From sequence record KY608965.1: 64,000 bases of DNA; one strand, written 5' to 3'. Of this stretch, positions 60,490-64,000 are shown in pieces; the first letter of the stretch is position 1, and every line of letters begins with the position of its first letter. Under the pieces are notes generated by a model. It did not search any database and was not told where the DNA came from. It was given only the letters and a program-made list of their open reading frames with translations. This stretch comes from Escherichia phage phiEC1. Position numbers and translations under genes: made by a program.

Positions 60490-63400
60490 ATGGCTACATT
60501 AAAACAGATACAATTTAAAAGAAGCAAAGTGGCAGGAGTTAATCCTACTGCAGCACAATTAGCCGAAGGCGAATTAGCGATAAACTTAAAAGACCGAACT
60601 CTTTTTACTAAAGATGACCTCGGTAATATTATTAGCCTGGGCTTTGCTAAGGGTGGGCAAGTTGACGGCAACGTTACTATTAACGGTCTTTTGAGATTAA
60701 ATGGCGATTATGTACAAACAGGTGGAATGACTGTAAACGGACCAATTGGTTCTACTGATGGCGTAACTGCAAAAGTTTTCAGATCTACACAGGGTTCGTT
60801 TTATACAAGAGCAACAAACGATACTGCAAATGCCCATTTATGGTTTGAAAATGCCGATGGCACTGAACGAGGCGTTATATATGCTCGTCCTCAAACTACA
60901 ACTGATGGTGAAATACGCCTTAGGGTTAGACAAAGAACAGGAAGCACTACTAATAGTGAATTCTATTTCCGTTCTATAAATGGAGGCGAATTTCAGGCTA
61001 ACCGTATTTTAGCATCAGATTCGTTAGTAACTAAACGCATTGCAGTTGATACAGTTATTCACGGTGGCAAAGCCTTTGGTGTATATGATACGGATTCATT
61101 AGTTAACTATGTATACCCAGGCACCGGTGAAACGAATGGTGTAAACTATCTTCGTAGAGTTCGTGCCAAATCCGGTGGCACTATGTGGCATGAGCTTTGT
61201 ACTGCTCAATTAGGCCAAGCTGATGAAATGTCTTGGTGGACAGGTAATACTCCACAGTCAAAACAGTATGGTATTCGTAATGATGGTCGAATGGCTGGCC
61301 GTAATAGCCTTGCATTAGGTACATTCACTACAGATTTCCCGTCTAGCGATTATGGTAACGTCGGTGTAATGGGCGATAAGTATCTTGTTCTCGGTGACAC
61401 TGTAACAGGTCTGAAATATATTAAACAAGGAGTTTATGATTTAGTTGGCGGTGGTTATTCTGTTGCTTCTATTACTCCTGACAGTTTCCGTAGTACTCGT
61501 AAAGCGTTATTTGGACGTTCAGAAGACCAAGGCACTACATGGATTATGCCTGGTACTAATGCTGCATTTTTATCAGTCCAAACTCAAGCGGATGTGAATA
61601 ACGCAGGGGACGGTCAGACGCATATTGGCTATAACTCTGGTGGAAAAATGTCGCACTATTTCCGCGGTAAAGGCCAAATGAATATTAATACCCAAGAAGG
61701 TATGGAAATTAACCCCGGTGTTCTTAAACTAGTAACAGGCGCTAATAATGTAAGGTTTTATGCTGATGGCGGTATTACATCTGTTAAGCAGCTTTCAATA
61801 TATAACGGCGTATATTTAGCAGCTAATAACTCAACAGCAGGTTTGACTTTTTCAGCAACTACCACGATTGATGGCACCAAACAAATCCTTTGGGAAGGCG
61901 GCACTCGAGCAGGCCAGAATAAGAGTTATGTAACTGTTAAAGCATGGGGTAATGCCTTTAACGCATCTGGCGATCATTCCCGTGAAACAGTTTTTGAAGT
62001 ATCAGATGGACAAGGTTACCATTTTTATTCTCAACGAGTTGCTCCTGGTGCAGGTTCTACTGTCGGACCTATTCAATTCCGAGTTAATGGCGGTTTATTA
62101 ACTTCAGGTAGTATTGTTGCTTCTGGTTCTATTACAACTGAATCTTCTTTGAGTGTTAATAATGGCATGACAGTAAATGGCCAGGCTAAGTTTGGCGGAA
62201 CTGCAGATGCGTTAAGAATTTGGAATGCTGAATATGGTGCTATTTTCCGTCGTTCAGAGGCGGCATTGCATATTATCCCGACTCCTAAAGATGCTGGAGA
62301 ATCAGGTGGAATAAGCAATCTCCGTCCATTAAGTATTAGTCTTAATAATGGTATGGTACAAATGCGCCATTCTGTCACGTTAGGCGATGATGGCGCTGGC
62401 GGTAATATGATTACTGTGGACAATGATAACAAACTTGTTGTTGTTACTAGTCATAGTCGTATTTCTCCTAATTACCGTATGCAGGTAGGACAAGCAGCTT
62501 ATATTGATGCTGAATGTACTGACACCGTTCGCCCGGCTGGTGCAGGGTCTTTTGCTTCACAAAATAATGAAAACGTTCGTGCTCCGTTCTATATGAATAT
62601 TAATCGCACAGATACAAGTACTTACGTTCCTATTTTAAAACAACGTTATGTTCAAGGAAATAGCTGTTATTCTTTAGGTACTTTAATAAATGGCGGTAAC
62701 TTCAGAGTTCATTATCATGAAGGTGGAGACGGAAGTTCAACAGGCGCAACTATAAAAGATTTAGGCTGGGAATTTACACGTTCTGGTGATTTTATATCTC
62801 CTAAGCGCATTTCTGCTGGGGGTTCAGTTTATTTAGGTACAGACGGTAACATTACTGGTGGTTCTGGTAATTTTGCTAACTTGAATACCACAATAAATAA
62901 CCTTAAGATAGATATTGTGTCGAGTTATCCAATTGGTGCTCCGATTCCTTGGCCTACTGATACACCTCCTGAAGGTTATGCCATCATGGAAGGTCAAACA
63001 TTTGATGTCGACTTATATCCTAAGTTAGCTGCAGTGTATCCTTCCGGCTCTCTGCCTGATATGCGCGGTCAGACGATTAAAGGTAAACCATCCGGACGTG
63101 CAGTATTAAGTACAGAAGCAGATGGTGTTAAGTCACATAGCCATAGTGCAAGTGCATCAAGCACAGATTTGGGTACTAAGACCACTTCTAGTTTTGATTA
63201 CGGAAGCAAAACGACTTCAAGCTTTGATTATGGTACTAAGACCAGTAATACCACTGGTAACCATAACCATACAGTGAGTGGTAATACTAGTTCCGCTGGT
63301 GCGCACCAACACGCGCGTTCAGGTCCTCAGGTACAAGGCGGCATACCCACTAGCGTATTCTATGATGGATACAATAGTGCGGGTCCAAACGGCAACGCTA

Positions 63401-63681
63401 AATTCACTGCAACCGTGAGCGGTGCTACTGCATCGTCGAATATGGCCAAAACTTCTTCAGACGGTGCCCACACCCATAGTTGGTCAGGAACTACTAGCGC
63501 TACGGGTAACCATGCTCATACTGTGGGTATTGGTGCTCATACCCATTCGGTAGGTATTGGTGCTCATTCTCATACTGTTGCAATTGGTTCCCATGGTCAT
63601 ACAATAACTGTAAATGCCACAGGAAATACAGAAAACACAGTTAAAAACGTTGCTTTTAACTATATCGTTCGTTTAGCATAA
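60490..63681 (+). CDS. 37: Long tail fibre distal subunit gp37 (receptor-binding, His-box needle)
   Basis: 1063 aa; conserved N-terminus [13 protein letters not shown]…; C-terminal HxH repeats ([33 protein letters not shown]). Confidence 0.95.
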
Positions 63682-63705
63682 GGAGAAGGGACTTCGGTCC
63701 CTTTT
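63682..63705 (+). other. GC hairpin (GGGACTTCGGTCCC + TTTTT) between genes 37 and 38
   Basis: Perfect 5-bp stem with TTCG loop, T-tract, about 6 nt before the gene 38 ATG. Confidence 0.6.
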
Positions 63706-63710
63706 TATAA

Positions 63711-64000
63711 TATGAAACTCTATCACTATTATTTTGACACTAAAGAATTTTACAAAGAAGAAAATTATAAACCATTAAAAGGCGTAGGATTTCCGGCTCA
63801 TTCGACACCAAAAAAACCTTTAGACCCTAAAGAAGGCTATGCTGTTATATTTGACGAACGCGAGCAAGAATGGGTATATGTTGAAGACCATCGCGGAAAA
63901 ACAGTATGGACATATGATAAGCAAAAAATTGTTATTGACACTCCAGGTGCTCTTCAAAATGTTACTACAGAAGAACCTGGTGAATTTGACATTTGGACAG
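63711..64000 (+). CDS. 38: Tail fibre assembly chaperone gp38 (T4-type), 5' partial; runs off window end
   Basis: Hand-translated MKLYHYYFDTKEFYKEENYKPLKGVGFPAHSTPKKPLDPKEGYAVIFDEREQEW… matches the T4 gp38 N-terminus as recalled. Confidence 0.8.

Follow-up and report, generated by a model that had tools for sequence, protein, structure and literature searches.

The fibre tip of closest known structure to the one considered here is that of phage T4 gp37, seen in PDB 2XGF, which comprises gp37 residues 785-1026 (Bartual et al. 2010; Islam et al. 2019, PMC6957217). There a collar is followed by an HxH-bearing needle hairpin, whose two equal arms of 50 residues span residues 882-931 and 960-1009 (PMC9603124). 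The T4 tip holds seven Fe, H929 and H931 are essential (PMC6957217), and residues 932-959 bind LPS and OmpC (PMC9603124, PMC6957217). The Stf protein of Ur-lambda shares a C-terminal module of about 215 residues, characteristic of the T4/lambda RBP family (Magaziner & Salmond 2022, PMC9659904), a family to which phiD1 and O157 typing phage 3 are also explicitly assigned (PMC9659904). In the LTF and STF tips of Felixounavirus Bas63, collar, needle and head resemble those of T4, and the number of di-His motifs varies (PMC12609058); Felixounavirus tips are distant, at approximately 45-50% identity over part of the tip, and Bas63 has 6-7 motifs. Among T4-type tips generally the di-His count varies, and it has been proposed that longer needles carry more of these motifs (PMC12609058).

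We analysed a window of 64,000 nucleotides from Escherichia phage phiEC1 (KY608965.1); all features described below lie on its plus strand. The C-terminal part of its gp37 is very probably the receptor-binding tip (D10-D11) of a T4-type gp37, its stem one module longer and its head larger than in T4, with the repeats serving as scaffold and the head as the specificity determinant.

Gene 37 and its T4-type tip

Gene 37, for the distal subunit of the long tail fibre, occupies positions 60490-63681 (1063 codons plus stop), and aligned end to end with T4 gp37 its product shows 75% identity. At the DNA level the whole gene is closest to that of Mosigvirus SA79RD (96.7%). Compared with PDB sequences by phmmer, the tip matches 2xgf_A (E 5e-89, query residues 56-333 covered). 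A Collar domain (knob, D10; aa 816-863, positions 62935-63078) precedes the needle, aligns to 2XGF, and is recognized by Pfam model PF07484 with 42.9 bits (cut-off 24; E 4.7e-11). The Phage_fiber repeat model PF03335, built on a 14-residue repeat, finds six stretches in the tip and scores 21.8 bits (cut-off 20); its score for T4 is 40.7 bits. A scan of gp37 and gp38 against NCBIfam gave no family match. Immediately downstream lies gene 38, encoding a T4-type tail-fibre assembly chaperone; the window ends within it, and the first 96 residues, encoded at 63712-64000, are 71% identical to T4 gp38 (E 2e-52). The identification as gp37, in agreement with the preliminary description of this DNA, and the assignment to the T4 type are made because of the 2XGF match, the 75% identity, the collar and fibre-repeat domains, and the gp38 chaperone, which T4 likewise has downstream. 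A distal fibre of the T2/T6 type, in which a gp37 without needle and head is capped by a gp38 adhesin bearing glycine-rich motifs, was considered and rejected, given the T4-type chaperone gene and a gp37 with full needle and head. Between the two genes, at 63683-63706, is a hairpin with a 10-bp stem and UUCG loop, followed by a U-run (-14.3 kcal/mol, z -4.06); a terminator scan of 63400-64000 called none, though this hairpin and U-run are present.

At 1063 residues, the protein is 37 longer than T4 gp37 (1026 residues). Upstream of the tip, insertions and deletions relative to T4 cancel (-11, -1, +11, +1), and the net excess falls entirely in the tip, where an ascending arm accounts for 10 residues, the head for 18, and a descending arm for 9. 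The preliminary description had placed the extra length in the receptor-recognition module, and the alignment agrees; the tip is not identical to that of T4, which leaves that reading standing. Over the last 193 residues the two proteins are only 54% identical, although a C-terminal string of ten residues followed by (I/V)AFNYIVRLA is common to both.

The tip is nonetheless an ordinary, already sequenced variant, contrary to the novelty that the preliminary description implied. Its last 193 residues are 100% identical to those of GenBank phage p000v (Mosigvirus, MK047717), with 98.4% identity over the last 702 nt, and tips of the same length occur in more than 100 phage records. The architecture class is common. 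Stem class (42,1,1,3), to which the window and p000v belong, accounts for 29 of the 178 unique tips parsed below, and the same tip class is found in JS09, HX01, phiD1, mogra, AV110 and others; O157 typing phage 3, like phiD1, carries the window's tip type. Lambda Stf, 61% identical over the last 193 residues, is nearer to the window than T4 is, but differs in its N-terminal fibre, its phage context (siphovirus prophages), and its heads.

Paired repeats on the two arms of the needle

By alignment to T4 and 2XGF, the ascending stem arm comprises aa 882-941 (63133-63312), 60 residues against 50 in T4, with HxH motifs at aa 883, 925 and 939. It carries three 10-residue units with a 30-nt period (63166-63255), one full unit more than T4, which has a 10-residue gap here; the first two units agree at 8 of 10 residues. 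This 30-residue repeat lies within the last 193 residues of gp37, and the 26-residue direct repeat quoted in the preliminary description is indeed present, at aa 895-920. The descending arm, aa 988-1046 (63451-63627), has 59 residues against 50 in T4, matches PF03335, and bears HxH motifs at aa 994, 1008, 1017, 1026 and 1035. Its His-box array consists of four 9-residue (27-nt) units, HAHTVGIGA, HTHSVGIGA, HSHTVAIGS and HGHTITVNA (63511-63618), again one unit more than T4, where the alignment shows a 9-residue gap. The chain then returns into the collar through aa 1047-1063 (63628-63678), the region of a 20-letter string that is nearly invariant in the family. With the T4 limits mapped onto the window, HxH motifs thus stand on both of two arms of nearly equal length (60 and 59 residues), around the head insertion. 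The multiple HxH motifs reported earlier near the C-terminus are confirmed, every quoted one being present. The last 193 residues hold eight, three ascending and five descending, against seven in T4, and all 16 His residues of this stretch belong to HxH pairs. In 100,000 composition shuffles of the same stretch, the maximum was seven HxH, reached twice.

From about 570 phage records and about 2,400 database proteins matching the tip, 178 unique homologous tips were parsed. An explicit spacing parser was used; a largest-gap heuristic mis-split tips without 14-residue units. The count of 10-residue ascending units predicts the count of 9-residue descending His boxes: when the spacing between the first and second HxH is 22+10n residues, the number of 9-residue His-box spacings is n+1. 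This rule holds in 176 of the 178 tips, across four values of n (0-3) and HxH counts from 5 to 10, and the window tip obeys it. Units of 14 residues, where they occur, are as numerous on one arm as on the other throughout the 178 tips. Both a shorter and a longer stem are found under eight of the head clusters, and both arm counts always shift together. Judged by these counts, the ascending repeat and the His-box array of the window belong together as the two sides of a single added needle module, and the stem is thus one rung longer.

Homology with the T4 crystal structure suggests how such a tip would be built. Three chains would run outward from the collar in extended form, making up the ascending arm, wind around one another in a small head, and return as the descending arm to give a six-stranded needle, with one axial metal ion at each HxH level held octahedrally by six His residues from three chains. 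Relative to T4, the extra module would add a His-free spacer of 10 residues to the outgoing arm and a 9-residue His box, GIGAHSHTV, to the returning one, for arms of 60 and 59 residues (50 and 50 in T4) and a head of 46 (28 in T4). An eighth axial metal site, against seven in T4, is predicted to follow from the extra rung, and gp38 would serve as the folding chaperone of the tip. The homotrimeric geometry, the metal occupancy and the greater needle length are what we infer from this homology. An AlphaFold2 monomer model of the 278-residue tip (71-sequence alignment) reached a mean pLDDT of 52.3 and a pTM of 0.21, too low to be of use for a fold that is an intertwined trimer.

The head and its recombination junction

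The head, or tip subdomain, comprises aa 942-987 (63313-63450). At 46 residues it is 18 longer than the 28-residue T4 head, to which its sequence is essentially unrelated, and it is the presumed receptor-contact surface. A recombination junction lies upstream at aa ~781-796 (62832-62877), just before a conserved 14-residue motif and the collar. Upstream of the junction, examined from 62600, there are no mismatches to SA79RD, and mismatches to p000v are dense; downstream, the sequence is p000v-like. Mismatches to SA79RD are dense at 63327-63459, whereas p000v shows none at 63073-63392 and only three inside the head. Upstream, p000v differs from the window: its gp37 has 1032 residues and DNA identity is 23-69% over much of 60,600-62,800, where the window's shaft is of the SA79RD type. 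The pattern of mismatches identifies gene 37 as a mosaic, in which recombination has brought a foreign head to an SA79RD-like fibre.

The preliminary description had named the repeat-bearing, His-rich tip as the likely host-range determinant. The tip module stands in that role, but the repeat and the His array appear to be stem scaffold, and the variable part is the head; the 46 residues at aa 942-987 are most likely the host-range determinant and presumably bear the specificity. The receptor is probably OmpC, as judged indirectly from other phages and not from this head sequence. In a large screen, 17 of 17 OmpC-specific Straboviridae carry T4-type Gp37 D10-D11, and Mosigviruses AV110, AV112 and AV113, with tips 94.7% and 90.6% identical to the window's at the nucleotide level, are predicted OmpC users.

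DNA repeats and alternative explanations

At the DNA level, the repeats are more divergent than had been described. The three units encoding the FDYG repeat (63166-63195, 63196-63225 and 63226-63255) are identical at 21/30, 21/30 and 17/30 nt in pairwise comparison (57-70%), and Tandem Repeats Finder does not report them even at a minimum score of 30. The near-perfect tandem repeat of about 27 nt claimed for 63170-63240 is therefore rejected. The true 27-nt array is formed by the GIGAHxHxV His boxes, called at 63511-63602 (period 27, 3.4 copies, 75% matches); its units are identical at 14-22 of 27 nt over all pairs and at 15-22 of 27 (56-81%) when adjacent. The longest exact repeats measure 15 nt (63526/63553, 27 nt apart) and 13 nt (63172/63232, 60 nt apart). 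Among the 60 best-matching phage tips (87.7-98.4% nt identity), no copy-number change is seen in either array, and the sole length variant is F31, with a 5-residue (15-nt) tandem duplication in the head, outside both arrays.

These data bear on the earlier suggestion of a slipped-strand variation site, by which unit copy number would shift through slipped-strand mispairing or short-homology recombination and yield host-range variants. Exact repeats of 13 and 15 nt do exist, copy number does vary among tip classes over evolutionary time (n = 0-3), and F31 has acquired a duplication, albeit in its head. T4 is also said, in the title of a 1996 paper by Tetart et al., to have expanded its host range by duplicating a small adhesin domain. 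A contingency locus, however, is expected to consist of near-identical tandem DNA units, and neither array does; with divergent units, short exact repeats and invariant arrays in the 60 closest tips, the suggestion is not borne out. A copy change in a single array would break the n / n+1 pairing kept in 176 of 178 tips and leave an unbalanced hairpin. We consider such a locus highly improbable. Cassette inheritance has somewhat more in its favor, although we still think it unlikely. Matched arms would then be a by-product of head exchange in which the recipient keeps both flanks, and not a structural need; co-inheritance of this kind, through double crossovers, could account for part of the pairing. 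Heads do move between stems, as the eight head clusters on two stem classes and the recombinant window tip itself attest, and mismatched arms can exist, since one natural tip, that of L003, combines two FDYG units with only as many His boxes as T4; the pairing is thus not absolute. Single crossovers in the head or in the 14-residue units should, on the other hand, often unmatch the arms, and only 1 of 178 tips is unmatched. The rule also spans four values of n and extends to the 14-residue units, and it is exactly what the 2XGF hairpin, with its equal 50-residue arms, predicts.

The stem repeats could, alternatively, bind receptor themselves, for example by lateral contacts to LPS sugars along the needle, so that an extra module would alter specificity directly. 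The T4 tip has been described as contacting LPS and OmpC at several sites lengthwise (PMC9603124), and in a thin stem the FDYG units, rich in Ser and Thr, would lie exposed at the surface. Nevertheless, the mapped T4 receptor-binding mutations all fall within residues 932-959, except for structural Gly and His positions, and stem units are highly conserved under unrelated heads, the 67 head clusters being carried by just a few stem classes; the reverse would be expected of an element that sets specificity. Direct binding by the stem seems quite improbable to us. We favor instead a scaffold role for the stem repeats, as paired halves of one needle module that would not contact the receptor, the head being the part that is hypervariable and recombined.

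For the phage, these assignments mean that a T4-type adhesin borne on gp37 is used, and not a T2-type gp38 adhesin. For the family, we offer as a tentative and still doubtful generalization that the modules of T4/lambda-type needles always come in pairs, one on the outward and one on the return arm (a 10-residue spacer with a 9-residue His box, a 14-residue unit with another of 14), so that needle length and metal number would be discretely tunable. Needle length may be selected to match receptor depth under LPS or O-antigen, with the window at the plus-one-rung setting. In the accessible literature the pairing rule itself may not yet be formulated explicitly, although the idea that motif number follows needle length is (PMC12609058). 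In chimeric tips of the T4/lambda type, the numbers of ascending 10-residue units and descending His boxes should be kept matched. The window's tip itself matters little; the arm-pairing rule is the one generally useful by-product.

Identity and anatomy of the gp37 tip

The ORF at 60490..63681 (+ strand) encodes gp37, the distal subunit of the long tail fibre, as a protein of 1063 aa that can be aligned over its full length with T4 gp37 (NC_000866, 1026 aa), the identity being 75%. The one structure of this type that has been solved, PDB 2XGF (T4 gp37 785-1026), matches the C-terminal 278 aa with an E-value of 5e-89. Pfam places a Collar domain (PF07484) at aa 816-863 and finds the 14-aa Phage_fiber repeat (PF03335) in the tip, where it scores 21.8 bits (cut-off 20). 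Gene 38 begins at 63712 and runs past the end of the window; over 96 aa it is 71% identical to the T4 gp38 assembly chaperone. The fibre is therefore of T4 type, with its adhesin on gp37, and a T2-type fibre is rejected on the same resemblance. A hairpin with a 10-bp stem, a UUCG tetraloop, and a U-run (dG -14.3 kcal/mol, z -4.06) occupies 63683-63706, after the stop codon of g37 and before the start of g38. It resembles an intrinsic terminator or an element affecting RNA stability, and was not reported by a consensus terminator scan.

Published limits for T4 assign residues 811-881 and 1010-1026 to the knob, 882-931 and 960-1009 to the stem, and 932-959 to the tip (PMC9603124). Mapped onto the window gp37, they give an ascending arm of 60 aa (882-941; 50 in T4), a head of 46 aa (942-987; 28 in T4), a descending arm of 59 aa (988-1046; 50 in T4), and a return to the collar of 17 aa (1047-1063), as in T4. 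The T4 needle holds seven Fe ions along its length, and H929/H931 are essential (PMC6957217). An AF2 monomer model of the window tip failed (pLDDT 52.3, pTM 0.21), so the geometry of the trimer and the number of metals are taken from homology.

Repeats and length compared with T4 gp37

The peptides quoted in the preliminary description are all present in the tip, and its eight HxH motifs (di-His motifs) lie at aa 883, 925, 939, 994, 1008, 1017, 1026, and 1035. All 16 His residues of the last 193 aa sit in HxH pairs. Eight motifs were reached in none of 100,000 composition shuffles, the highest count being seven, seen twice. At the DNA level, a near-perfect tandem repeat of ~27 nt had been placed at the site of the FDYG units, the 10-aa repeats of the ascending arm. 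However, the period there is 30 nt (63166-63195, 63196-63225, and 63226-63255), pairs of units share 21/30, 21/30, and 17/30 nt, and Tandem Repeats Finder does not call the repeat. The 27-nt array that this program does report lies elsewhere, at 63511-63602 (3.4 copies, 75% matches), and corresponds to the 9-aa GIGAHxHxV His boxes of the descending arm.

The protein is indeed longer than T4 gp37, with the excess in the tip. Three insertions in the tip add up to the net gain of 37 aa: 10 aa, an additional unit of a 10-residue type; 18 aa that fall between HxH-3 and HxH-4; and 9 aa, an additional GIGAHSHTV unit. Indels upstream of the tip cancel (-11, -1, +11, +1). In the shaft, an 11-aa segment of T4 (FAGDVYAKGII) is missing at aa ~532 and a different 11-aa insertion occurs ~100 aa downstream, at aa ~625-635 (region ~62080-62400), so that shaft length is conserved despite the indels.

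Paired repeat counts on the two stem arms

We parsed 178 unique homologous tips, taken from part of the ~2,400 database matches and from fetched phage loci. In this set HxH-1 and HxH-2 on the ascending arm are spaced by 22+10n aa, with n counting the FDYG units, and the 9-aa His-box spacings number n+1. The n+1 rule is followed by 1/1 tips with n=0, 95/95 with n=1, 75/76 with n=2, and 5/5 with n=3; one more tip parsed oddly, as (69,0,0,1). The count of 14-aa units is the same on both arms in 178/178 tips. Eight head-sequence clusters are each found on two stem classes of different length, and in all eight, the window's own cluster included, both arm counts shift together. Of the 178 tips, 29 belong to the window's stem class, (42,1,1,3), and 63 to that of T4.

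HxH totals in the sample range from 5 to 10. Among the database/IMG/VR homologues, P0044 has two 14-aa units per arm and 10 HxH, in L012 three FDYG-type units go with four His-box spacings, and P0235 has no full FDYG unit and a single 9-aa spacing. Five E. coli prophage proteins with the tip module (P0040, P0045, P0047, P0048, and P0051) carry the source names "tape measure protein" or "terminase large subunit family", with matching Pfam domains, and are probably mis-joined or fused gene calls.

Because the counts on both arms co-vary, the tandem repeat in the peptide and the enlarged set of His boxes are the out and return halves of one extra stem rung. From sequence positions, with residue counts starting at the collar on either arm, we infer that the His-free ascending stretch from HxH-1 to HxH-2 would face the run of 9-aa descending His boxes, and that the 14-aa units of the two arms would interleave. 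The extra rung is predicted to lengthen the arms by about one fifth in residues and to add an eighth metal site on the axis. That the di-His number varies has been published already, as has a proposed link of this number to needle length (PMC12609058).

The pairing rule might owe part of its strength to both stem flanks being inherited together when heads are swapped, but single crossovers should then yield many unmatched tips, and these are nearly absent. The sole rule-breaker, the metagenomic L003 (IMGVR_UViG_3300030021_000020), combines two FDYG units with the T4 number of His boxes. It may have arisen by a single crossover, represent a mismatch that is tolerated, or be an artefact of assembly. 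Slipped-strand variation, for which the repeats had been proposed as a site, is not supported. Exact direct repeats within 63100-63681 reach at most 15 nt (63526/63553) and 13 nt (63172/63232). FDYG units 1 and 2 are identical at 8/10 residues but only 21/30 nt, which points to an old duplication kept by protein-level selection. Query-spanning alignments of the closest 60 phage tips (87.7-98.4% nt identity) contain no indels except in Escherichia phage vB_Eco_F31 (OP870147), where an extra 15 nt encode a 5-aa QGGVP-QGGVP tandem duplication in the head; small duplications therefore occur there and not in the stem arrays. Slippage in only one of the arrays would unbalance the hairpin, and unmatched arms are near-absent in nature (1/178). 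By the comparative data, the locus does not look like a contingency repeat, even if the tip classes surely originated in rare short-homology events over evolutionary time. Duplications in this region can reportedly expand T4 host range, to judge by a 1996 title of Tetart et al.

Exchange of the tip and receptor recognition

The genome backbone is Mosigvirus-like, with ~97% identity to Mizar, LH01, and SA79RD over 30000-54000. In a sliding comparison of gp37 with two Mosigvirus relatives, SA79RD and p000v, the window differs from SA79RD by a handful of mismatches from the gene start (99-100% identity per 200-nt window), with none from 62,600 to ~62,830-62,877. A junction falls at 62832-62877 (aa ~781-796), just ahead of a conserved 14-residue motif and the collar. 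From the collar on, the window follows p000v, with 0 mismatches over 63073-63392, and SA79RD diverges densely at 63327-63459, the head. The last 193 aa of p000v gp37 are 100% identical to those of the window's gp37, while the shafts are very different. By this comparison gp37 is a recombinant, SA79RD-like upstream and p000v-like from the collar. This is a case of the well-known swapping of a C-terminal module of ~215-280 aa within the T4/lambda receptor-binding-protein family (PMC9659904), and Ur-lambda Stf is closer to the window tip (61%) than T4 is (54%).

Receptor-binding mutations of T4 map to the head, residues 932-959 (PMC9603124; PMC6957217). The Mosigviruses AV110/112/113, whose tips are 94.7% and 90.6% identical to the window's in nucleotides, are predicted to use OmpC, possibly with LPS (PMC10844046), and in a large screen 17/17 OmpC-specific Straboviridae had T4-type Gp37 D10-D11 with variable tips (bioRxiv 10.64898/2026.04.02.716166). 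On this indirect evidence, OmpC is the most likely candidate for the primary receptor of this phage. The sequence of the tip is in public databases already, and tips of its architecture class are common. The proposed role of the tip in host range holds insofar as gp37 recognises the host through this end, but the part given to the repeats was misassigned: the stem repeats are scaffold, not specificity elements.
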